A DNA stretch of 57,337 nucleotides, from assembly GCA_048213135.1 (NCBI GenBank), contig PS015062.1, forward strand, positions 100,943 to 158,279. Direction: 5' to 3'. Positions 5,665 to 39,700 of the stretch are shown here, piece by piece. This DNA comes from Reclinomonas americana ATCC 50394. Lineage: Eukaryota. Position 1 is the first letter of the stretch. Each line of letters begins with the position of its first letter. A program made the position numbers and the translations under genes. The notes beneath the pieces are model-generated. The model saw only the letters and a program-made list of their open reading frames with translations. It did not search any database and had not been told where the DNA came from.

Positions 5665-17115
<11,451 letters not shown>

Positions 17116-24672: not shown

Positions 24673-26513
24673 TCAAATCTGAATGGAGCCAGCTCGTGGA
24701 TCCTCCTGCAGCTGACCGTACGGGTTCTTGACCGAGGCCGTCTGCGTTTTCTCCCACTCGCGGAACTTGGTCACGTCGGCCTGCAGGCGGCGGTTGCGGC
24801 GCACGAGGAAGATGATGATGATGACGGCAGCCACCAAAACAATGGCGCCGCCAATGGTGCCGATCACGACAGCGGTCACATTGATGCCGCCTGTGTGGTG
24901 TTGCGTACGAGGGTGGGGGACATGAGAGAGAGAGAGAGAGAGAACACGGATTGCACGCACCTGGTGGGGGCGGTTCCACAGGGCACGCCACGGGAGTGTC
25001 CATGCGGAAGTGGTAAACGCCGTGCGTGCGGTCCTCGCCATTGTAATGCATCTGCACCTGCTCCGGCGCAATCGTCTTGTTGCAGTAGAAATCAATGTAC
25101 GACGTGCGGTAGGCGCGGAGGCGGCTGTAGCTGGCGCCGTCGCGGTAAATCAGGCGCACGCCGACGGACTCGTTCATCGGATCAATGTACTCGAGCGTCG
25201 TGTTGGCGTTGAAGGCGCCGCAGTTCTTGCAGAGCGGAGTGGTGGCGGAGGCCGGTCGTCGCTGCAGCACGGCGGCGGGGCGATCGACGGGGTTGCCTGC
25301 GGAAGGGAGAGAGTGATCAGCGAGGGAGGGTGCGGGGCAGAGAAGAGTGAGTGTGCGAGTACCGGAGCATTGGCCCTGTGTGTGAGAGGCGATGAGCAGG
25401 AGGTGGGAAAAAAGGGAAGAGATACAATAATGCTCACCTTGGATGAGATGGCGGAGCAGATCATGACTTGCTGTGTGTGGGGTGGGGGGGGGGGGGGGGG
25501 GAGGGAGGAGGAGAGAGAGAGAGAGAGANNNNNNNNNNNNNNNNNNNNTACGGTACGAGCGAGGGGGGGGGGGGGCGAAGGGAGGAAGTGAGCGATCGAA
25601 ACGGAGAGAAGCGCATGGCAACGGAGGCGATCGGTAGTGCGGGAGGGGAGAGCGAAAAGAGCGCTTCACAGAGTGAAAGGAGAGAGCAGGGAAACGATCG
25701 CTGGCGAGCAACGAATGCAGGCAGTGGGGGGTCCATGCAAGAGCAGGGAAGAAACTGACAAGGAACAGAACGCAGCATGCAGTGGAACAGCGATGAGTAA
25801 GAGCATGCGAAGCAGTGGAAGCGATCGATGGAGAGCAATAGAACGCAGACTGTGATGAGGAGAGTGAAACATGGAGGCGAGTATCAATAGAGTAGATGGA
25901 GAGCAGGGAAGCGACAGACAAGGAACAGAACGCAGAATGCGGTGGACAAAAGCTGAGCAAGAAACATGTGAAACCGGTGGAAGCGATCGATGGAGAGCAA
26001 CAGAACGCAAACTGTGATGAGGAGAGTGAACCATGGAGGGGAGTAACGACTGAGTGAACGGAGAGCAGGGAAGCGACTGACAAGGAACAAAATGCAGAAT
26101 GCAGTGGAACAGCGATGAGTAAGGAACATGCGAAGCGGTGGAAGCGATCGCTGGCGAGCAACAGAACGCAGATTGTGATGAAGGAGAGTGAATCATGGAG
26201 GGGGTGACGAAGGAGAGTGAATCATGGAGGGGAGTAACGACTGAGTGGGGAAACGATCGCAGGCGAGCAACAGAACGCAGACTGTGGCGGAACTATCGAC
26301 AGGAGCAATACAGAGCGGAATGGAGAGTAGGATCGCGACGAATAAAAGCGATGAAGAGCTCCTCAAGATAAAGGAGACAGCGCGAGTAAAGAGCGGGGAA
26401 GCGATCGATAGCAAGCAACAGAACGATCGAGATGAAGCGAAATGAAAAGCGATCACTAATGCGCAGCACACCAGAGAAGCTCTCTCTCTCTCTCACTCAC
26501 TCACTCACTCACG

Positions 26514-26558
<45 letters not shown>

Positions 26559-27145
26559 GAGAGAGAGAGATCACATAAAACCAAGACCCGATCACACCAC
26601 TGCTGCACTTACGCAACGTACTCATAACCCGGCGGATCCAGATCCTCATCGCCAAACACCGCGCGATTATACCCACTGACACACATCATCACAAGCATCA
26701 GCATCCGCATCGCAGACACACGTGGTCGGCCTCACACAAGAACGAAAGTGGACATTGCACACGTGCAAAACAAACAAACACACACACACTTGCACACTCA
26801 CTCACTCACTCACTCACTCACTCACTCACACACACACACACACACATACACTCACTCACTCTCACACACTTTCTCTCACTTTCTCTCTCTTGCGCAACGC
26901 AACGTCAGCGAGCTGAGATCGGTCTTTCCGATCGCGCATGAGAAGGGAGTGACTGCAGTGGAGTGCACTGCGACTGCCTGCGCCTGCTCATTGCTGGTGT
27001 CGTCATCGGCGTCGAGGTAATCATAAGCAACTTCGGAGCCGTCGGCTTGGTAGCGTCGCGATGGTGGTGTGCTGGAGGCGGCAAGGCACAGCGCGAGGCA
27101 TAGTGCGAGAACGCACACAAGGAGCGGAAGCGATCGAGCTCGCAT
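24673..27145 (-). CDS. Type I membrane protein with a mannose-6-phosphate receptor homology (MRH/ATG27-like) domain
   Basis: Signal peptide MRARSLPLLVCVLALCLALCLAAS; CAIGKTDLSSL; YEYQVMIC; GVRLIYRDG; RTSYIDFYC; YHFRMDTPVACP; TM helix; cytosolic NPYGQL (YxxL sorting motif). Confidence 0.8.
25680..26290. repeat. Degenerate ~161-162-bp tandem repeat in an MRH-gene intron
   Basis: GAAGCGATCG anchors at 25818, 25980 and 26141; partial copies at ~25691 and ~26250. Confidence 0.85.
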
Positions 27146-27328
27146 GCTCCACCCGAGACAGATAAGAGATCCGTTTTGTCCTGCACTTGTGCAAGTCACA
27201 GACCCGGTGTCGAAGAGCGCAGGTATCTGTGGTGCGCAGGGGCAGCGAAGGCTGCAGAACCTGGCCTCGCAGAGTGATCGATTTTGGCCGAAAAAGCGCG
27301 ACGTCGCGATGGACAGCCGATGAAAATT

Positions 27329-27428
27329 AGTTTCTCCTTCTCCTCCTTCTCCTCCCTTGCAGCTGCCACTGTCCTCCTCAGCGCATGATCTCTACCGCAC
27401 TCATCGTCCATCGTCCTGTGCGACAACT
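27329..27428 (+). repeat. Direct repeat copy 1, upstream of the RNA ligase gene
   Basis: CTCCCTTGCAGCTGCCACTG-CCTCCTCAGCGCATGATCTC...CATCGTCCTGTGCGACAACT matches 28858-28972. Confidence 0.9.
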
Positions 27429-27542
27429 ACTGTTATGTAAACGCGCGTCCACACAAGCAAAACACTTCATTCACCTCACATGCGACAAACGCCCACACTT
27501 TTTCATGCGTCTTGCCAGACTGCTCGCTTCTTTTTGAGGACC

Positions 27543-28853
27543 ATGTCTGTGCACGTGCGCGCGCCACCCTTCCTGCCCTACCCCAGCTTCGACAACTACT
27601 CCGAGAAGTTGTTCCACCGCGGGTTGCGCAATGGCGACGAGGATGGCTGCGTATACAACACGCGTGGCCGTTTGCACCCAGGCGCCCCGTGTGTGGTGAC
27701 GGAGAAACTGCACGGCGCCAACTGCTCCGTTATCGTGCCGTTGACTGCAGATGCAGTGGTGGACGACGACCTGCCGTTGCACGTGGCCTCGCGCAGTGTG
27801 GCCTTGGGTCCTCTTGTCATCCAACCGGCGGGAGAGGGCCGCAGCGAACCGCATTTGTTTGGAGCCTGGTCTCACCTGCACTCACTGGCGCCGGCCTTTC
27901 GTCGGTTTGTGCGCGAACTGGAGCGTCCGTTGCCACTGCCCGATGCCGTGTCGGTGCAGTTTTACGGGGAGGTGTATGGCGCTGGCATCCAGAAGGGTGT
28001 CGGTGCGCACTACCGCCATGACAAGGCCTTTGCCATTTTCGACGTGGCGGTGGTGGCCCCGCAGCCGGCAGGTTCAGCGGCGGAGGACGTCGATCGCGAC
28101 GAGCTGAAGGACGATGGAGAAGAACTACGCCGACTGCAGGCGCATTTCCTGCCGCTGGATCAAGTGCAGGCTTTGTGCGAGTTGGTGGGCCTGCACTACG
28201 TGACCACGATCTTTGCCGGCCCTCTGGCCGAGTGCGTGCAGTGGTCGCTGGATCACTTGCGGGAGCCGACGGGAATTCCGGCGCTGGTGCTGAAGGACGA
28301 CCCCGCGGCGCTGGCGGCGATTCCGCCGTACGTGCGCGAGGGTCACGTCATCCGCCAGACGGAGCCCTTGGTGCATGTGAGTGAGTACAAGAGCGGCCGG
28401 CGCTGTGTGTGGGTCAACTACTACGCTCGCTGCAAGCACAAGGGCGAGCTGGTCTTTGGCAAGAACGAGCTTCATGCGGCGGCCGGTGCTGCGAAGAAGC
28501 CTGCGCCGCGCAAGCTCAAGATGACGCCGCGCATAATGGCCCTTCGCCTGGTCACCGCTGACCGTCTCCGCTGCCTGCTGGACAAGTACAACCGTCAGTG
28601 GTCGGCACTCGAGTCGGAGGAAGCGTGGGTAGACCTGTTGTGCCGCGACGCTTTGGAGGAGTGCCGTGAGGTGCTGGTGCCGGCGGCACAGGCGGCTGCT
28701 GGAGGAGGCAGCTCTTCGACGGATCCGGCGGATCCGGAGGAGGAGGAGCTGCCGGCGGACCCCACCGCTGAGATGCTCCGCAGGGGTCGCCAGGTGCTGG
28801 AGAAGCTGAGGCGCCGTGGCGATGGTGGTGCTGGCGTTGGTGAAGATGAGTGA
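27543..28853 (+). CDS. Intronless ATP-dependent RNA ligase of the Rnl2 family (T4 Rnl2-like, with C-terminal domain)
   Basis: N-terminal FLPYPSFDNY; motif I EKLHGANCS; motif III FYGEVYGAGIQKGV; IIIa FAIFDV; IV EGHVIR; V RCKHK; C-domain VTADRLRCLLDK...DALEE. Compared with Rnl2 motifs recalled from memory. Confidence 0.9.
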   Translation: MSVHVRAPPFLPYPSFDNYSEKLFHRGLRNGDEDGCVYNTRGRLHPGAPCVVTEKLHGANCSVIVPLTADAVVDDDLPLHVASRSVALGPLVIQPAGEGRSEPHLFGAWSHLHSLAPAFRRFVRELERPLPLPDAVSVQFYGEVYGAGIQKGVGAHYRHDKAFAIFDVAVVAPQPAGSAAEDVDRDELKDDGEELRRLQAHFLPLDQVQALCELVGLHYVTTIFAGPLAECVQWSLDHLREPTGIPALVLKDDPAALAAIPPYVREGHVIRQTEPLVHVSEYKSGRRCVWVNYYARCKHKGELVFGKNELHAAAGAAKKPAPRKLKMTPRIMALRLVTADRLRCLLDKYNRQWSALESEEAWVDLLCRDALEECREVLVPAAQAAAGGGSSSTDPADPEEEELPADPTAEMLRRGRQVLEKLRRRGDGGAGVGEDE

Positions 28854-28857
28854 ATAG

Positions 28858-28972
28858 AGTTTTTCCTTCTCCTCTTTCTCCTCCCTTGCAGCTGCCACTG
28901 CCCTCCTCAGCGCATGATCTCCAATGCTGAGCCATCATACACACCCCCCTATCATCGTCCTGTGCGACAACT
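28858..28972 (+). repeat. Direct repeat copy 2, between the RNA ligase stop and the COMT start
   Basis: Matches 27329-27428 with an internal indel. Confidence 0.9.
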
Positions 28973-28993
28973 TGATGATTGTTCGTCGTGCTC

Positions 28994-29680
28994 ATGACTG
29001 CGAGTGGAGAACGCGAAGACGCAGCTGTGGCCTTTGTCCAGGAGCACGCCCGCCGCGGCGATGCGCAGAGTGTGCTTGATGCCATCGATCGCTTCGGCTG
29101 GGAGCAACAGTTCCTGATGAACGTGGGCAATGTCAAGGGCCGCATCCTCGACGAGGCCCTGGAACGCGCTGCCCCGCGCACTGTGCTGGAGCTGGGCGCC
29201 TACCTCGGCTACTCCGCCATCCGCATCGCCACGCGTCTGCGGCACGTGCACCCGGAGGAGCGGGTGCGGCTGATCAGTGTGGAGATGAATCCGCGCTATT
29301 ACGAGCTCGCCACGGCCATGGTGGCCTTTGCTGGAGTCGACGACATTGTGCACATTATCAATGGCGCGACGCAGGATGTGCTGCCCGAGCTCGCCGAGCG
29401 CACGGGCATTGCGTCGTTTGACTTTGTGTTTATCGATCATTGGAAGGACGTCTACTTGCGCGACATCAAGCTGCTCGAGCAGTACAAGCTGCTGCGCGAT
29501 GGCACGACGGTGGTGGCCGACAATGTCATCTATCCCGGGGCGCCGGATTACCTCGAGTACGTGCGGGGAGCGCCGCAGTTCACCTCGACGTTCCACGAGA
29601 GTCGGCTGGAGTACAGCCACGATCGCGTCGACGGAGTGGAGGTCAGTGTGTACCACGTGAGGAAGGAGGGAGGAGAGTGA
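28994..29680 (+). CDS. COMT: Intronless catechol O-methyltransferase
   Basis: GDAQSVLDAID, MNVGNVKG, VLELGAYLGYSA, FVFIDHWKDVYL, VADNVIYPGAPDYL and LEY...DGVE are all characteristic COMT motifs. Confidence 0.92.
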   Translation: MTASGEREDAAVAFVQEHARRGDAQSVLDAIDRFGWEQQFLMNVGNVKGRILDEALERAAPRTVLELGAYLGYSAIRIATRLRHVHPEERVRLISVEMNPRYYELATAMVAFAGVDDIVHIINGATQDVLPELAERTGIASFDFVFIDHWKDVYLRDIKLLEQYKLLRDGTTVVADNVIYPGAPDYLEYVRGAPQFTSTFHESRLEYSHDRVDGVEVSVYHVRKEGGE

Positions 29681-29893
29681 AGCAACAATGAACTGAGATC
29701 GTGCACATGAGGCGGAATTCGAACAGAGCTCGAGAGGTCCACGCGATTGAAAAACAAGTCTACACGAGCACGTTCATGGCTGTAAGGCACTCCCGCCACA
29801 GACTCATAGTGAAGCTTGTCGCTCATACCGCAGCGCGACGAAGTTGATTGCGGGCGGGACCAATCACAATTTCGCGCGCTTTTTCCCACAAAC

Positions 29894-30984
29894 ATGCTCC
29901 GAACGCGAAGACGGCCTCCATGTCGCGGCCCACTCACACACGCTCTTCCTCTTCTCCTTCCTCCTCTGGTCCTCCTTCTCTGTCTCCTCGCTGTGTGTCT
30001 TGGTGAGCCACTGGGTGACGATCCACGACTTGCAATCCCGCGACGTGTGTTGGATCCTGCTCTCGCCGCACAGCAAGTGGTGGTACCTGTGGTCGACTTT
30101 GGCGGGGAAGTGGCGGTGACTGTCAGGCATGAGCATGACACCATCGGCGATGCTGGTGAGTGTGTGTGTGTGTGTGTGCCAAGTTGATTGCATTGGTTCG
30201 CTTTTTCTCCCTTTCTGCTGCTGCTGCTGATACTGCTTTTTGCAAACGCAGTGAGAGAGGCGTTGGCAATGCACGCGCTCTCCTCTTTAGTGACTGAGGA
30301 GCTTGTTGAACAAGTCGCCCACAGTGTGCTGACAGAGTTGCAAGTTAGTATCATCATCCATCTGTGGCCCCCCCTCCTCTCTCTCTCACTCACTCTTCTC
30401 GACTCAGACGATCCAGCTGAGGCGTGTCGGATGTTATGCCCACGCGCCGGCGACTGAGGATGAGAATGCAGACCCCATGTTCAGCATGGATATGCCGCGC
30501 TTTGTCATGTACCCTGCACGCAAGTGGACGGTGTCTGTGGCACAGAGCGGCGTGCAGCAAATGAAGGATGTGCATGTGGACACGTACTCGGCGCCAACAC
30601 TGTGGGGCGCAGGTGAGTAATCGTGAGTGCAACGAGGAAACGCCATCACTCGCGCACTGAGTTGTCTCGGTATCGATGCAGTGCTGGCTGCAGTTGGCGA
30701 GGACAATGATGTGGCGCGTGAGGCGTTGCAGCAGAGTTNNNNNNNNNNNNNNNNNNNNNNNNNNNNNNNNNNNNNNNNNNNNNNNNNNNNNNNNNNNNNN
30801 NNNNNNNNNNNNNNNNNNNNNNNNNNNNNNNNNNNNNNNNNNNNNNNNNNNNNNNNNNNNNNNNNNNNNNNNNNNNNNNNNNNNNNNNNNNNNNNNNNNN
30901 NNNNNNNNNNNNNNNNNNNNNNNNNNNNNNNNNNNNNNNNNNNNNNNNNNNNNNNNNNNNCGGAGAGGGTAGCGGGTTGGTCGA

Positions 30985-31022
<38 letters not shown>

Positions 31023-33029
31023 TCGTCCTCACTCGCAGTTTCTATTCATCCTGCTCCATCTCTCACCACCCATTGCCCTTCACGAGCTGACTCTCTCGAC
31101 GTACATGCTGTGAGCAGAAAGACAGGAGGATAAGGCGTCGGCACAAGCGATTCTGCGACTTTATTGCCGACTGGAATGTTGCGTAATTCATGGCGCGACA
31201 CACACCCGCGTCAGCTCACCATCATTGTCCACTGCAGTGGCAAAAACCATTGACGCTGACACCAGCTGTGGAGAAACTCGTCGCTGCGCGGAACCGTCAG
31301 TTCTTCGCCGAGTGGAGATACGCCACGCCGCATGTGCTGTTGTCAGCTTCCTCGTCGGCACAGGAATTGATGCGAGCCAATCTCCTCTGTCTCTCCCTGA
31401 TCGGTTTGTTTGTGTGGTGTCACGTGTGGTGGTACATTCTCGTCGCGGGGCCTCGTGAGGTCTTACATGCGTTGGCAGGGGGTGCGGACCTGGTGATGGA
31501 CGAGCAAGAATGTGAGCACATTGGTCCGCAGTTTGCGCAGCGCAGCCTCACCATGGCGCCTCCACCATTTCCGGACCGCTCGGAGCCTCCCGTGCACTCC
31601 TTGTCGGCCGCGCTGCGCACCAACAAGCGGACGGCCGAGTATCCACGCATCGAGTTCTATCCAGCCGACCTCTGTCGCGAGCTGGAGACGGAAATGTGGC
31701 GCGTGCTCACAGACGAGACGGCACTCGCGGAGGCTGCAGCGGCCGTGAATGACTTCCGCGCCCCCACCCCGCAAGCGCTCTTCCCCCAGGAAGGGCCACC
31801 GATGCAGGAGAGTCGGCTTATGTTGGACCGGCTGGCGGCGGTGTTGGCGAATCCGCGCATGACTATGCAAGCGGGCCCCAACTCGCCGTATCGGCTGGTG
31901 GTGTTCACAGAAGTACAGTTGGCGCCGAAGAACTCTGCGCGTTACCTGGAGCTGATCAGAATATGGGTGGCCCGGTTCTTTGCCGCGCACGGCGATCGGC
32001 TATTGCCGCTGATTGTGTGCGCCGACGAGACCACGGCGACGGCCGTCAAGGCAGTGCTGGGACATGGTCGGGATGCGGGTGTGCTGCTTGATGAATCGGG
32101 CTGGTGAGGAGAGGGAGAGGGGCTGTTTGTGTAGGAAGAGGGCAGCAATGCCAACAAGCGCTGTGTGCACGCACAGGACTGTCGACCGACCACGCGACCC
32201 TGCCGGATTCCCGCCTGTGATCAACCTGCGTACGCTGTACGGCTACCTGCTGCTGCGATGTGGCGTGCAACCGTTCCACATCGACATGGATGCCGTGTTT
32301 GTGCGGCCGGTGTGGGACCTGCCGCAACTCTGGTCGGCGTCGGAGGTGTACGAAATCCCACCCGACATCATTTTCCACGCCGACCTCTACGGTATTGCCG
32401 ACCACGATGCAACGCTAATGCTGACGGGGCCGCCAAGGGAGCGTACCCGCAATCCGTGGTCGTACACGATTCCCAGCAGTCTGTCGGACTTTGGTCCGGT
32501 AAGCAGGCTGAGGTCTCTCTCGACATCTCTCTCACTCACTCACTCACTGCGTGCGCCGCTGTTCTATTCTTCGTCGTGTAGGGCAAGGTGCCGGCACGTG
32601 TTTGCGCTGCCCACCAGCGTGCGTTGAGCATCAACACTGGGGTGTGGACAGCACGACCGACCGTGTACGCGCTGCGACTGTTTGCGGCCGCGGTGGGCCA
32701 ATTGAATCAGCGCTGGTCGGAGCTGCAGGATCAGCAGTTCATGAATGCGCTTGTGGACGTGCATGTGCGCCTCGGTCGGCTGCGCATCGACTGGTTCGAC
32801 CTCCACCGGGTCAACGCAGTGAGTGGCATTGAATTGCTGGTGGCACGAAGGCAGATGAGCGACATACCGGAGGCGACGGACTTGGTGGTGGTGAGGGGGG
32901 AACTATTTCGTTCCCATACGGGTACTGCAGATCAATGTGCTCATTCGTGCCACCGTACAGGTGCACGCTTGTGGGGCTGGGGACAAGGTTGAGATGCTCA
33001 ACAGAGCGCTGTGGTGGAAACCTCTGTAA
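29894..33029 (+). CDS. Nucleotide-diphospho-sugar transferase (GT77/PF03407-like) glycosyltransferase, tandem copy A
   Basis: N-terminal hydrophobic signal/anchor; GVQPFHIDMDAVF (DxD); INTGVW; QDQQFMN; HAC...K; ends WWKPL TAA. Confidence 0.75.
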
Positions 33030-33188
33030 GTCGTTCATTTTTTTCAGTTCAGTTGTTGTTGCTTGAGCATCTGTGGCTGGTGCGTGCTGCGCATGATAAC
33101 TTTTCGGTGAAAACGTAAGTAATGTCCGTTGTCCGCAGTCCACATGCAATTTTCGCGCGCTTTTCTTCTCCGTCATTTGGTGCGAGGA

Positions 33189-36100
33189 ATGCGAATAAGG
33201 CCTCCGTGTTGTGTCCCATGCACAAGCTCTCTTCTCCTCCTTTCTCTAGTCCTCCTTCTCTGTCTCCTCATTGTGTGTCGTGGTGAGCCAGTGGGTGACG
33301 ACCCGCGGCTGGCAATCCCTCGACGTGTGTTGGATCCTGCACAGTCTGCACAGGTTGTGACGGTGCCTCTCATCGACATTGGGGGTGAAGTGGTGGTGGT
33401 GACTGTCAGTCATGAGCATGACACCATCGGCGAAGCTGGTGTGTGTTCAGTACATATTTCACCGGCATGCTCGGCTTTTTGTTTCACCCTTTCCTCTCTA
33501 ATGCTGATAATGCATGCCGCTACCTGCAGTGAGAGAAGCCCTGACAGCGCACGCACTCTCTTCTCCACTGACTGAGGAGCTCGTTGAACGGGTCGCCTCC
33601 AACGTGCTGACAGCTCTGCAGGTTTGCTGTCATTGCTCCTTCCTTGTCTGTCTCGCACATGCGCGTACACGCACGCTTACCCTTATCGCCCCTCAGACAA
33701 TGCAGCTGAGGCGCGTTGGATGTGGCGCCGTCACACCAATGACTGAGGATGAGATGGCAAACATGGTGTACCGCATGGATGTGCCGCGCTTTGTCATGTA
33801 CCCTGCGCGAAAGTGGACTGTGTCTGTGACGCCCAAGGGTTCATCACAAGCGAAGGATGTGCATGTGGACACGTACTCGGCGCCAACACTGTGGGGCGCA
33901 GGTGAGTAATCATGAGTCGCCATCGCTCTCACCCTGAGTTGTCTCACCGTCGATGCAGTGTTAGCTGCGGTTGGCGAGGACAATGATGTGGCGCGCGAGG
34001 TGTTGCGGCAGAGTTGGAGCTTGTTGACAAAGGTGCGGAGAGCGTGCTGCAAGTCCGTGCTTACCATGGCCAGTTTCCCTTGCGGACAATAGGTGGACCG
34101 AGTCTCATCAAACGAAAGCTGACTTATGGGCATGCATGCCACTTGCAGAACGACGACAACAAGCTCGCAGACAACCGCAAGCGATTTTGCGATTTTGTTG
34201 CCGACTGGAGTGTTGCGTAAACTATATATGCCGCGCTAAGTGCGTCATGTTGCGCTCATTGTCAATGTTTGCACCTTGACTCTTGCAGTGGCAAAAACCA
34301 TTGACGCTGACACCAGCTGCGCGGAACCGTCAGTTCTTCGCTGAGTGGAGATACGCCTCGCCGATGCTGCGATTGTCGGTTTCTTCGTCGGCACAGGCAT
34401 TGATGCCTGCCGATCTCCGCTGCCTCTCGTTGCAAGGTTTGTGTGGTGCCACGTGTGATGTACTCTCATCATGCGGACTCGCTGTCTTATCAGCGTTGTT
34501 GGCAGGAGGTGCGGACCTGGTGGTAAACGAACTGGAGTGCGAGTATCTCGGTCCCCAGTTTGCTCAGCGCAGCCTCACCATGGCGCCCCCGCCGCTGCCC
34601 GACCGCTCGGAGCCTCCCGTGCACACCTTGTCGGCCGCACTGCGCACCAACAAGCGGACGGCCGAGTATCCACGCATCGAGTTCTATCCAGCCGACCTCT
34701 GTCGCGAGCTTGAGACGGAGATGTGGCGCGTGCTCACAGACGAGACGGCACTCGCGGAGGCGGCAGCTGCCGTAGGAAATCACCTCGCCCCCACCCCACA
34801 GTCGCTGTTCCCCTTGCAGGAACCACCGATGCAGGAGAGTCGGCTAATGCTGGACCGGCTGGCGGCGGTGTTGGCGAATCCGCGCATGACTATGCAAGCG
34901 GGCCCCACCTCGCCGTATCGATTGGTGGTGTTCACAGCGGTACAGCTGGCGCCAAAGAATTCAGAGCGTTATCTGCAACTAATAAGAGTGTGGATGGCCC
35001 GGTTCTTTGCCGCGCACGGCGATCGGTTATTGCCGCTGATTGTGTGCGCCGACGAGACGACGGTGACGGCCGTCAGGGAAGTACTGGGACCTGATCGGGA
35101 TGCGGGTGTGATCCTCGACGAGTCGGGCTGGTGAGCAGAGTGCTAGGGAGAGGGGCGATGAGTCGAAGACCAACGCACTCTGTGCGCGCACAGGATGGTC
35201 GACCGACCGCACGATGCGAATGGCTTCCCACCCGCTATTAACTTGCGTTTCATGTATGGCTACCTGCTGCTGCGATGCGGTGTGCAGCCATTCTACGCCG
35301 ACATGGATGCCGTATTTGTGCGGCCAGTGTGGGACCTGCCGCAACTGTGGTCGGCGTCGGAGACGTACGACATTCCGCCCGACATCATCTTCCACGCCGA
35401 TCTCTACGGCGGTACTGACCACGATGCGACGCTGATGCTGGTGGGCGCACCAAGGGAGCGTACCCGCAATCCCTGGTCGTACACGATTCCCAACAGTTTG
35501 TCGGACTTTGGCTCGGTGAGCAACTGGCTAGTTTTGGAGAATGCTTGTAGTAGTTCACCTTGTCTCTCAAACTTGCCCTTCAATCCATGCTTGCAGAAGG
35601 GCATTCCGTCCCATGTTTGCGCCGCCCACCAGCGTGCGTTGAGCATCAACACGGGTGCATGGACAGTGCGACCGACTGTGTACGCGCTGCGACTGTTTGC
35701 GGCCGCTCTGGGCCAGTTGAATCGGTACTGGTCGGAGCTGCAGGATCAGCAGTTCATGAACGTGCTGGTGGACGTGCATGTGCGCCTCGGTCGGCTGCGC
35801 ATCGACTGGTTCGACCTCCACAAGGTCAACACACTCAGCGGAATCGAGTTGCTTNNNNNNNNNNNNNNNNNNNNNNNNNNNNNNNNNNNNNNNNNNNNNN
35901 NNNNNNNNNNNNNNNNNNNNNNNNNNNNNNNNNNNNNNNNNNNNNNNNNNNNNNNNNNNNNNNNNNNNNNNNNNNNNNNNNNNNNNNNNNNNNNNNNNNN
36001 NNNNNNNNNNNNNNNNNNNNNNNNNNNNNNNNNNNNNNNNNNNNNNNNNNNNNNNNNNNNNNNNNNNNNNNNNNNNNNNNNNNNNNNNNNNNNNNNNNNN

Positions 36101-36257
36101 NNNNNNNNNNNNNNNNNNNNCAGGGGCAGCTGCTGATGTGTTATGCATGTTCGTGCCCTCACGACTTCACGCCTGTTGCACGCAGCTGCACCACGCCTGT
36201 GGTGACGGAGACAAGGCCGACATGCTCGAAACCGCTCTGTGGTGGAAGCCGCTGTGA
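33189..36257 (+). CDS. GT77-like glycosyltransferase, tandem copy B
   Basis: Same exon structure and motifs as copy A (YADMDAVF, INTGAW, QDQQFMN); ends WWKPL TGA. Confidence 0.75.
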
Positions 36258-36797
36258 AAGGCCTAGGAGGAGTACGTTTCAGGGACTGATCGATTCATTG
36301 CAGAGATACTGGAAGGCAAAGCATCGAGGATAGTGTCGAAGCAGTCCACGATCTCCTGCAGAGGGGCAGCAGACTTGTGAGGCGCTCCGAGAGAACAAAC
36401 ATTTCATTCACCACATTCTGACAACGTGACGAATGACCTTCACAAAGCACCTCATGCTCCATAGGGACCCTCCATAGTCCTGTAATGCAACAAATGTCCA
36501 CGTATGCTTTACCGACACTGACCTTGGCTATATCATACAACACACAATCGTCCCTGAATTCATGATATCGCGAAGTTCTTCTTATAATTATGCAACGTCA
36601 CTCCCTTCGCGCTCTTTCAATCTGCATGACCTCGCGCTGTTATCTGCTACAGAAGCTGACATGCAGTTCACTGTTGCTGTCGCGCTTGAAGTTGTCGGCA
36701 ACTGATGCAGTCCGCGAGCTGTCCCATCGACAATCAGCGTCTCTGCTCAGCGCGCACCTCGTCTCCTCTCCATACAGTGCGTGAGACGAGCACGCAG

Positions 36798-39700
36798 ATG
36801 CTGTCGACTCTGTCGCGCTCTCTTCGCGCCACCACCACCTCGCCTCTCCATGCTGCACTCAAGGGCTCTCTGGTCGCGCGACTGGCCTCCACTGAGGCCA
36901 AGTCGTCGTCTACGTCTTCTCTGTGGCAGCGATTGGCCGGACCCGACACTGGTGTTGCATCGCCATCGTTCACGAATCGCTGGTTGATGATGGTGCCTGC
37001 GCTCGGCTGTCATGTGTGTTGCGTAAGGAGAAGCGGGAGGGAAAGGGGAGGGAAAGGGGAGGAGAGGTGGCACTGATTGACTTGTCTGTTTCGCGCTCTC
37101 TTCTGCAGCAGAAGACAATGGAAGAATGATTGTGTGTGTATGTGAGAGTGGAGGGGAGCAAGGCACACACGCACTCTCTTTTAAGGGCATGTGAGTGCAG
37201 AGAAGGAACAAGATGATCATGAGAAAGAGGAAGGGAAAGGGAGCAAGACACACACGCGCTCTCCAGACATGAAGAAGACTGATCGTGAGAGAGAGAGAGA
37301 GGAGAGAAAGTGAGACAAACACGCACACTCTTTCTCGCTCGCCTCCTTGTCTGCACTTGAGAAAGAGTGTGAGGCAGGTGAGAAACAGAGTGTGTGTTGC
37401 TCTCTTGTTCCCTTCCTCTCTTGATCGTCATTCCCCCTGTCTGCACTCACATGCACTTGAGAGAAAGAGTGTGCGTGGTTTGTCTCACTGCTTCTCCCCT
37501 CCTCTCCATTCTTCTTCATGTCTGGAGAGCGCGTGTGTGTCTTGCTCCCATCTTCCCTTCCTGTATCTCACGATCATCTCTGCACTCATATGCTCTCTCA
37601 CTGTCTCTCTCACACGCGCGCTTACATTCTCTTATTCATCCATTGTCACTCAGCGGATATCGACTGCGAGAGTCACACACTCTTTCTTTCATTCAGTTGT
37701 CTTTCTGTTTTCTGACTGCACATCTGCATATGCGACGCCACTTGTCTGTCTGTCGTGTTGCGTCGTGATCATTTCAGTTTGGTGAGCTTTTACATGCCTC
37801 TTGTGATTCCTGTTTTGTGCGTGGCATGTCCTCCATTCCATTTCGTTAGTTTCCTGCGTTTTGTTGTTTTTGTTTGTTTGTTTTGCTTGGCATACAGATT
37901 CCCCTCTAGATCTTGTCCGTTTATGGTGCTGCGGCGCCGGTCTGTTTTCCTTTCCTCCCGTTTTCTCACTGTACGCCGCGGTCGCAGGCATTGGCTCGGT
38001 GTATGCCTGGTCGGCCATGTCGGGTGCCTTGTCACGTGAGTACGGTTTTGTGGCGCCAGCGGCCTCGGATTGGTCGCTGGCCGAGGCCACGTATCCAATG
38101 GCCACGGTGCTGGCCATGCAGGGCATTTCTGCTGCGCTCGGCGGCAAGTGGCAAACGCGTGTGGGCATGCGAGCGGCCATGGTTACGGCGGCGCTGTGCT
38201 TTGGTGGCGGTGTGATGTTGTCGGCTCTTGGAGTGGCCACGCACCAGCTGTGGCTGGTGTATCTTGGCTACGGAGTGCTCGGTTGCGTTCATGTTATTGT
38301 TGCCCTTCCATCCATTCCTCACGCTGACTGCGCGCGCACCACTACAGGCGGTACTGGTGTGGGATTGGGATACACGCCGCCGGTGCAGGCGCTCATCCAG
38401 TGGTTCCCCGATCGTCGTGCGCTGGCGGGAGGCATTACCATTGCCGGATTCGGCTCTGGTGCACTCTTCTTTGCGCCCGCGGTCTCGTACTTGATGAAGA
38501 AATTCTCCCGCCTGCCGACGTATCTCGGACCGGCCGACGCGGTCGAGGTGATCTCCAAGGATGGCAAGCTGTTTGCCAATGTTGGTGATGCGCTGAAAGA
38601 GGTGAGCGGAAAAGGGAAAGGGCGGAGAAGGGGGAGATAGGGGAGGGGAGGGGAAGGGGAGGGAAAGGATGGTTCCGTAAGTTATTGGTGCTTGGTCGAG
38701 CGTTAGGACGGGGCATTGGCACCGTTATGTCGGTTTCATTCTCCTGCCTTGCATGTCGCGGTTGTACACCTGCTGCTCCTGTCATTCTCGCGACAATCAC
38801 GATTTCTGCTTTATCTGTTCTCCATCGCTTGTGTGCTTCCTCGAGCGTGAATATGGGGCAGCGGCATCTTGTTTTCTGTGTCCTCGGCGAGACTGTCGTG
38901 CTCTTTGTTTCTGTCTTGCATGTCTCTTCTGCGCTTGGTCACACGTAAAGATTTGGGTATTTGCACCTTGCAATTCTCTATCAACGTTTTCACGTCTCTT
39001 CCCTCGCCGCTTCGAGCGTGAGGATTGCGTTCTAATGCTTGTTGCTCTCTGTACGTGACACGACGAGCAGGCACTCTGTTTCTGTCATTGCTTTGTTTTC
39101 ATAGTGAATAGTGCACTGCTCTTTCTATCGTGAGATTGAGTGGACCATGTCGGTCGTAGCATCTTGTGTGGCCTTGCCGTCTCATGCCTCTCTTCTTCCC
39201 TCACCCTCCCGCGTGCAGGTCGTCGTGGCTAATTCGATGGATCTGGCCACCCTGTCACAAGGCTCGCTGCTTCAGGAGGTAACGACTCGCCGCGCTCTCC
39301 CCACCCTCTCTCTCGCCACTCACACACGCGCTCTCTGTTCTCGCCCCACGCAGGGTGTGTACGTGGTCGGCAGCGGCAACACCGGCGCCACCGCAGCGCT
39401 GAGCATCATTGGCGCAACGTACATGTGCATCATGCTGCTCGCGGCCTTTTCCCTGCGCCGTCCGGCGCCGGGCTACGCACCGGCCGGCTACGTTGCTCCG
39501 AAGACGGGTCTCGGTTCCACCGCCGGCAATGTGCACTTTTCGCAAGTGATGAAGACGCCGCAGTTTTGGCTGCTGGCCACCACATTCACGTGCATGGCCA
39601 CGGGCGGTGTGGCGCTGATGAGCGTGTCGAAGCCGAGTTGCGTACCATAGAAGGAGACGTGACTCCAGAATGAGAGATGAGCGATGGAGTGAGGGGGGAA

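Follow-up and report, generated by a model that had tools for sequence, protein, structure and literature searches.

What a gene without introns for an RNA ligase of the bacteriophage T4 Rnl2 type is doing in the DNA of an intron-containing protist, and how it came to be there, is the question raised by a stretch of 57,337 nt from Reclinomonas americana ATCC 50394 (GenBank assembly GCA_048213135.1, contig PS015062.1, positions 100,943 to 158,279 of the forward strand), hereafter called the window. The gene lies at positions 27543-28853 of the window, on the + strand. In the sections of PMC4599027 that deal with the Rnl2 family, its members are mostly viral and bacterial, and scarce and scattered in eukaryotes; the distribution of Rnl2 is also treated in part of PMC3400036, and Rnl2 appears among the lateral-transfer candidates of anaerobic ciliates in the relevant section of PMC13198582. 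We consider it probable that the open reading frame (ORF) is a genuine, intact, single-exon nuclear gene of a GC-rich, intron-containing host, that its product is an ATP-dependent RNA ligase of the T4 Rnl2 (RnlB) type with two domains and the gene itself an old resident, and that the protein is one of five sequences forming a small and deeply diverged clade of the Rnl2 family; its activity, substrate and age are what we infer.

An uninterrupted reading frame

The ORF runs from the ATG at 27543 to the TGA at 28851-28853 and encodes 436 aa in a single exon with no internal stop, and the intronless 1.3-kb reading frame described in the original prediction is thus real. However, because the window is approximately 60 % GC and contains spurious ORFs longer than this one, ORF length alone is uninformative and the case for a ligase gene rests on homology. 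An in-frame ATG at 27480 would lengthen the product to 457 aa, but since the aligned homologues begin where the Met encoded at 27543 sits, 27543 was taken as the best start of the coding sequence (CDS). The two features are as follows.

27543-28853, + strand: Rnl2-type RNA ligase CDS (ORF reading, PF09414, family profile and hhalign)
27480-27542, + strand: optional 21-aa N-terminal extension from the in-frame upstream ATG at 27480 (ORF reading)

An in-frame intron hidden within the ORF was considered and rejected. On reading of the sequence, only two GTRAG sites are present, at 28377 and 28666; splicing from the first would excise the strand that precedes motif V and cause a frameshift, and no acceptor with a pyrimidine tract goes with the second.

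Catalytic motifs and family assignment

All of motifs I, Ia, III, IIIa, IV and V could be identified. Motif Ia is represented by R84, which aligns with R55 of T4 RnlB, and the remaining motifs, all placed by alignment, are located as follows.

27702-27722, + strand: motif I, EKLHGAN; the codon of K55, the predicted adenylation site equivalent to K35 of T4 Rnl2, is 27705-27707
27963-27980, + strand: motif III, YGEVYG; E143 corresponds to T4 E99, and a short T4-type GIQK follows, with no REL-type loop
28029-28046, + strand: motif IIIa, FAIFDV; F166/D167 correspond to T4 F119/D120
28335-28355, + strand: motif IV, REGHVIR; E266 corresponds to T4 E204
28431-28445, + strand: motif V, CKHKG; K298/K300 align with the K..K that is invariant in the family profile including T4 Rnl2

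K55, R84, E143, F166/D167, E266 and K298/K300 vary little or not at all in alignments with T4 Rnl2. When aligned with T4 RnlB, residues Y13, E54, K55, H57, N60, R84 and E143 of the window ligase match Y5, E34, K35, H37, N40, R55 and E99, and Q150, F166, D167, E266, R341, D369 and E373 match Q106, F119, D120, E204, R266, D292 and E296. Apart from R266 and D292, most of the matched T4 RnlB residues are essential according to published mutagenesis.

The search with the RNA_ligase model that had been proposed as a check gave a match above the cut-off (PF09414, residues 49-276, E 1.3e-14; 55 bits, where 27 is the cut-off), and this, together with the alignments to T4 RnlB, bears out the claim that the nucleotidyltransferase motifs are intact. 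RNA-ligase family 548 of PHROGs was matched with an E value of 1.9e-19, and in BLASTP the first 178 residues were 27 % identical to T4 RnlB (NC_000866; E 4e-8). A family profile made from the window protein and 13 relatives gave E 1.5e-53 for full-length T4 Rnl2 (2hvq, chain residues 2-325), E 4.4e-41 for the adenylyltransferase domain of T4 and E 3.7e-30 for REL1 of Trypanosoma brucei (1xdn). The NCBIfam model TIGR02307, which defines the Rnl2 equivalog, was matched over residues 51-374 (E 8.4e-12) with 45.2 bits, the cut-off being 197.15. Hence, as judged from its sequence, the window ligase is a divergent member of the Rnl2 family that does not count as an equivalog of the phage and bacterial proteins.

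The C-terminal domain

An all-helical C-terminal domain is specific to the Rnl2 type, and a domain of this kind was found, with the equivalents of R266 and D292 of T4 in place.

28527-28823, + strand: C-terminal helical domain, residues ~329-427, with R341 at 28563-28565 and D369 at 28647-28649 (model and alignments)

When the five-member clade was compared by hhalign with a set consisting of T4 RnlB, two phage ligases and eight relatives, 312 columns were aligned (probability 100, E 1.6e-48) and the alignment reached the C-terminal end. R341 and D369 align with the T4 pair R266 and D292, which forms a salt bridge in the T4 C-terminal domain according to the relevant part of PMC4599027. The extent of the TIGR02307 match, to residue 374, also supports the presence of the domain, and the Pfam model T4_Rnl2_C (PF18043) is carried by 9 of the 14 aligned family members. 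In an AlphaFold (AF2) model with a mean pLDDT of 72, helices occupy residues 329-386 and 409-427. Foldseek searches with this model ranked the T4 Rnl2 chains first (E 6.6e-14, 428-433 alignment columns). In VIA-align the best matches were tied, namely 1xdn (Z 19.1, 228 aligned residues, rmsd 3.0), 2hvr_A (Z 18.5, 292 residues aligned, spanning 8-426 of the model), 2hvq (Z 18.0) and 1s68 (Z 17.8), with archaeal ligases and Naegleria NgrRnl forming the next group at Z ~14. Because the hhalign alignment extends to the C-terminal end and the structural matches favour T4 Rnl2 and T. brucei REL1, the description of the protein as full-length Rnl2 type is correct, and assignment to the full-length T4 Rnl2 type is supported at the levels of sequence, profile and fold.

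Several observations weigh against this assignment or against parts of the overall interpretation. The window protein on its own had no match to T4_Rnl2_C at E<=1, and the claim of an intact Rnl2 C-terminal domain is carried by hhalign, TIGR02307, the fold and R341/D369. When the five-member clade was compared by hhalign with T4 alone, just the N-terminal 160 columns were aligned, which counts against membership as far as the C-terminal domain is concerned. The TIGR02307 score is far under the equivalog cut-off, and a single-sequence phmmer search of the PDB returned no match at E<=0.01. The alignment used for the AF2 model was shallow, at 14 rows, and confidence in the model is low at a linker (303-325) and a loop (387-398). 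Finally, the view of the gene as an old resident draws solely on divergence and codon usage.

Comparison with characterized ligases

The window ligase and T4 Rnl2 (RnlB, gp24.1; 2HVQ/2HVR/1S68) share the plan of a nucleotidyltransferase domain followed by a helical C-terminal domain, and both have a short GxGIQK after motif III. However, they are only ~23-27 % identical, and the window ligase is ~100 aa longer, with a longer segment before motif I. It also differs from T4 Rnl2 in having an acidic insert after motif IIIa (~170-200), a 23-aa linker of low confidence, a low-complexity loop (378-405) and an acidic tail, and in its eukaryotic nuclear context.

REL1 of T. brucei (1XDN) is, like the window ligase, eukaryotic, and has an Rnl2-type adenylyltransferase domain. 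However, the loops found between motifs III and IIIa of REL1 are absent from the window protein, and the latter's C-terminal domain aligns with the T4 type, unlike REL1. The substrate-binding loops between motifs III and IIIa that mark REL1 and REL2 were not found in the window clade, which has the same short YG(A/P)G(I/V)QK as T4; a longer form, with a GG...loop after motif III, was seen only in other family members outside this clade. REL1 and REL2 are further marked by their mitochondrial location and by an OB-fold partner to which the C-terminal domain binds.

These comparisons bear on whether the gene could encode an organellar RNA-processing ligase, analogous to kinetoplastid REL1/REL2, whose product from the upstream ATG carries a targeting peptide. 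The putative 21-aa extension is basic and rich in hydroxyl residues (3 Arg, 1 His and no Asp or Glu) and resembles a targeting peptide, though it is the sole hint of targeting, and T. brucei REL1 ties as the best structural match with a Z of 19.1. On the other hand, the short T4-type GxGIQK takes the place of REL-type loops after motif III, the family profile fits T4 Rnl2 far better than REL1 (1.5e-53 versus 3.7e-30), and the N-termini of the four clade relatives are unrelated to that of the window ligase. An organellar ligase of this sort therefore seems distinctly unlikely, and the REL1/REL2-like editing activity that had been suggested for the protein found no specific support.

Two further eukaryotic ligases were compared. 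NgrRnl (Rnl5; 5COT) of Naegleria gruberi is a eukaryal nick-sealing ligase with a related nucleotidyltransferase fold (Z ~14), but the part that aligns runs from residue ~136 of the chain, after its N-terminal domain, to the chain end, whereas the window ligase has its motif I Lys at residue 55 and carries its accessory domain on the C-terminal side. The combination that defines Rnl5 (NgrRnl/DraRnl), an N-terminal accessory domain and no C-terminal domain, was thus not found. DpRNL of Diplonema papillatum is, like the window ligase, a PF09414 member from a protist that is not a kinetoplastid, and its role is given as unknown in the sections of PMC4599027 devoted to it. There it is described as having 203 aa and two short C-terminal helices, compared with 436 aa and a full C-terminal domain here.

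Relatives and the question of recent transfer

The window ligase has very few relatives. When 1.84 billion cluster representatives were searched exhaustively with HMMER, 13 proteins were found at E<=1e-3; three of these reached E<=1e-10 and none reached E<=1e-30, the lowest E value being 1.3e-22, and no match exceeded 41 % identity. The ligase had no match among 5.8 billion proteins in a word-indexed search, and family alignments used as queries in the same search recovered only six and two proteins.

The 36 rows of a maximum-likelihood tree comprised the window protein, 17 proteins recovered in the searches, 14 full-length metagenome or viral ORFs and four phage ligases including T4; the ~200-aa EKIDGTN-type ORFs and one further protein, P0016, were left out. 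The window protein grouped with P0001, P0002, P0003 and P0005 with support of 100/100 on a stem of 0.9, and this clade fell in an unresolved polytomy with T4 Rnl2 and other full-length forms. The phylogeny that had been proposed as a check, built here with phage, viral and metagenome sequences, yields a distinct clade. The four relatives share ~29-40 % identity with the window protein. A C-terminal RRM in P0003, poly-N/poly-Q tracts in P0005 and poly-S in P0002 suggest that the relatives are eukaryote-like. No account of a eukaryotic clade like this one was found in full-text searches of the literature, though this is weak evidence given that the members of the clade are nameless.

More distant matches were found in phages (15 records by tblastn, all <28 % identical, the best with 24.7 % identity and E 3e-6) and in at least 42 IMG/VR loci, at least 32 JGI metagenome loci and at least 10 loci in prokaryote genomes, with 22-33 % identity over the longer matched segments among the matches listed. 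Most of the viral and metagenome pattern matches listed are short proteins of ~190-240 aa with an EKIDGTN-type RNA-ligase domain and no C-terminal domain (loci L003, L006, L009-L011 and many of the IMG/VR loci L033-L074), and these are a subfamily other than full-length Rnl2. Clusters of look-alikes in the ESM-Atlas are mostly from Uroviricota.

If this protist had recently acquired the gene horizontally, with a phage, giant virus or bacterium as donor, that would account for the lack of introns, and it would fit with a family that is mostly viral and bacterial in the sections of PMC4599027 cited above, with the preponderance of Uroviricota among ESM-Atlas look-alikes and with an intronless gene flanked by a direct repeat (described below). 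Nevertheless, recent transfer is disfavoured and we rate it as very improbable, as the best phage match is 24.7 % identical, the IMG/VR, metagenome and prokaryote loci lie at the 22-33 % noted above, nothing exceeds 41 % identity among the 1.84 billion representatives, and the codon usage of the ligase is host-like. Because the phage, viral, metagenome and prokaryote matches are all distant, transfer in recent times from any of the phages, giant viruses or bacteria sampled is very unlikely, and since even the nearest relatives are only ~29-40 % identical, any transfer would be old. The clade may have arisen through an ancient transfer at its base or through vertical descent with many losses.

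A gene of the host

The assembly is of draft quality, and the window contains 18 N gaps that add up to 4835 N. The ligase gene, the gene that follows it, for a COMT-type O-methyltransferase, and three introns verified in the gene after that all lie in a single N-free block, 25549-30738. The ligase has a G+C content at third codon positions (GC3) of 0.77, compared with 0.70 in host exons, and the relative synonymous codon usage (RSCU) of the ligase correlates with that of host exons at 0.79, compared with 0.64, -0.09 and 0.35 for controls. Contamination or a misjoin at scaffold level is thus unlikely. That the ligase is a contaminant from a different organism, attached to the protist's DNA in a chimeric assembly, might be argued from the N gaps and from the fact that just one small DNA sequencing run contained 20 % of the sampled words, but the uninterrupted block, the host-like GC, GC3 and RSCU, and the fact that the repeat flanking the ligase doubles as the leader of a neighbouring host gene all argue against this, and we regard it as scarcely credible.

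A direct repeat around the ligase gene

A direct repeat of ~100 nt brackets the ligase ORF, in two parts separated by an indel, one of 64 nt (95 % identity) and one of 20 nt (100 %). It is present in only two copies in the window, where none would be expected by chance.

27329-27428, + strand: upstream copy; pyrimidine-rich tract ending in TTGCAG, then conserved blocks (sequence comparison)
28858-28972, + strand: downstream copy; begins 5 nt past the ligase stop codon and ends 21 nt before the COMT ATG (sequence comparison)
28994-29680, + strand: COMT-type O-methyltransferase ORF, 687 nt, 228 aa, intronless, included as context for the repeat (phmmer and Pfam)

From the position of the downstream copy before the COMT ATG, it follows that one pyrimidine-rich TTGCAG leader precedes both intronless ORFs. 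The repeat may be a duplicated promoter, a leader or 5'-UTR, or a splice acceptor. The simplest reading of the comparison is that a duplicative insertion of 1529 bp gave the ligase a copy of the COMT leader, or the reverse. A relic of a second ligase copy upstream of the repeat was sought by tblastn and blastn and none was found. A divergent ORF on the minus strand (26876-27145), 398 nt away from the ATG of the ligase, starts with a hydrophobic segment resembling a signal peptide and may represent exon 1 of a gene that has a bidirectional upstream region in common with the ligase.

The COMT-type ORF begins 140 nt past the ligase. Its product is strikingly close to the vertebrate soluble COMT, matching rat and human COMT over residues 7-221 (phmmer E 4.9e-60) and PF01596 at E 5e-20. 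Pnkp and Hen1 are a ligase-methyltransferase pair in RNA repair. An analogous pairing was considered for the two genes here and rejected, the neighbour being close instead to the animal small-molecule COMT (E 4.9e-60).

Introns in the neighbourhood

Downstream of the COMT-type gene, a two-gene unit is tandemly duplicated on the + strand (~29860-33100 and ~33170-36300), with exons ~90 % identical and introns diverged. The unit consists of a short-exon gene with a signal-peptide-like start and a gene for a glycosyltransferase-like protein (PF03407, nucleotide-diphospho-sugar-transferase-like). Comparison of the copies revealed segments bounded by GT(G/A/T)AG...(C/T)AG that have diverged and contain indels, and these define five introns of 64-96 nt. 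Their positions in copy 1, from the paralogue alignment, are given with that of a candidate sixth.

30156-30251, + strand: intron, 96 nt
30344-30407, + strand: intron, 64 nt
30613-30681, + strand: intron, 69 nt
32104-32176, + strand: intron, 73 nt
32499-32581, + strand: intron, 83 nt
~32891-32960, + strand: candidate sixth intron, read by eye only

The motif GGTRAGT occurs 24 times in the window, 19 of them on the + strand, where 11.8 +/- 3.6 would be expected, and none of 100 shuffles reached 24. Because GT-AG segments diverge between the paralogues and GGTRAGT is in excess, the host can be described as intron-rich with short introns, of 62-96 nt in the neighbouring genes. An intron-poor kinetoplastid host, to which the CA/CT microsatellites and pyrimidine tracts might have pointed, is ruled out by these GT-AG introns. 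However, the claim that neighbouring genes carry an intron every ~100-250 bp fits one gene (exons of 92 and 205 nt) and not the next, as the PF03407 gene has a first exon of 914 nt and the COMT gene is intronless. With five introns in ~2.2 kb of neighbouring coding sequence (~1 per 400 nt), the Poisson probability of finding none in 1311 nt is ~0.03-0.05, an estimate that is suggestive, coming from a very small sample.

The lack of an intron in the ligase CDS, set against ~1 per 400 nt in its neighbours, and the ~100-nt direct repeat, which fits a duplicative event, could both be explained if the gene were a processed retrogene or duplicative insertion, the copy of an intron-bearing parent having been reinserted upstream of the COMT-type gene. 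However, there is no A-rich or poly(A) tract past the stop codon, which speaks against classical retroposition, the repeat is far longer than usual target-site duplications, tblastn found no second copy or relic within the 57-kb window, and the 914-nt exon and the intronless COMT neighbour indicate that long stretches free of introns are normal at this locus. We therefore consider such an origin unlikely, and classical retroposition, as far as the nucleotide sequence can tell, is not supported. The proposal in the original prediction that the gene was acquired by horizontal transfer or retroposition was not borne out, as no donor-like sequence was present in the collections searched, the codons are host-like and there is no poly(A); such an origin is neither shown nor excluded.

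Elsewhere in the window, Pfam matches are few (4 of 27 and 4 of 28 ORFs tested) and Rfam and tRNA scans of the whole window gave no matches. MFS-like fragments are present at 37807-38637. A tandem repeat with a 162-nt unit (2.9 copies, 83 % match) lies at 25740-26210 and is followed by CT/CA/CTCA microsatellites at 26470-26890, and long GT, AG and CA dinucleotide arrays are found at 15351, 16518, 20622 and 46393.

Predicted reaction and role

By homology, Lys55 would attack ATP to form a ligase-AMP intermediate, at a nick in duplex RNA the AMP would move to the 5'-phosphate, and attack by the 3'-OH would then close the nick. In T4 Rnl2, transfer of AMP to the 5'-phosphate of the nick needs the C-terminal domain. 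Nick-sealing activity is likely for the window ligase, and its role is likely to be in sealing broken RNA, that is repair, or in joining RNA ends, and not in editing by U insertion and deletion.

A bolder combination of the findings is a long shot. It holds that the clade is an undescribed, eukaryote-restricted lineage of full-length Rnl2, apart from the editing ligases, and that a promoterless, intron-free ligase ORF would have been domesticated via a duplicated COMT-type leader of ~100 nt (the pyrimidine tract and TTGCAG). Both start codons would then be used, with the longer product carrying an organellar targeting peptide. If true, this would place a REL-like RNA-joining role outside the Euglenozoa.

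Implications

In our preferred interpretation of an old, host-resident Rnl2-type gene, what is known of the Rnl2 enzyme family itself is unchanged; what is new is a divergent member and the duplication of a leader around it, together with a recent transfer being disfavoured as its origin. The leader duplication is a concrete trace of how the ligase gene was installed. In the sections of PMC4599027 concerned, the role of Rnl2 outside the kinetoplastids is unknown and the eukaryotic examples are few and scattered, and the window gene adds a full-length and apparently functional example from an intron-rich protist. Its clade is very sparse, with three relatives at E<=1e-10 among 1.84 billion representatives. 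If the clade is eukaryotic and vertically inherited, it would offer a tractable entry to the function of nick-sealing RNA ligases in eukaryotic cells.

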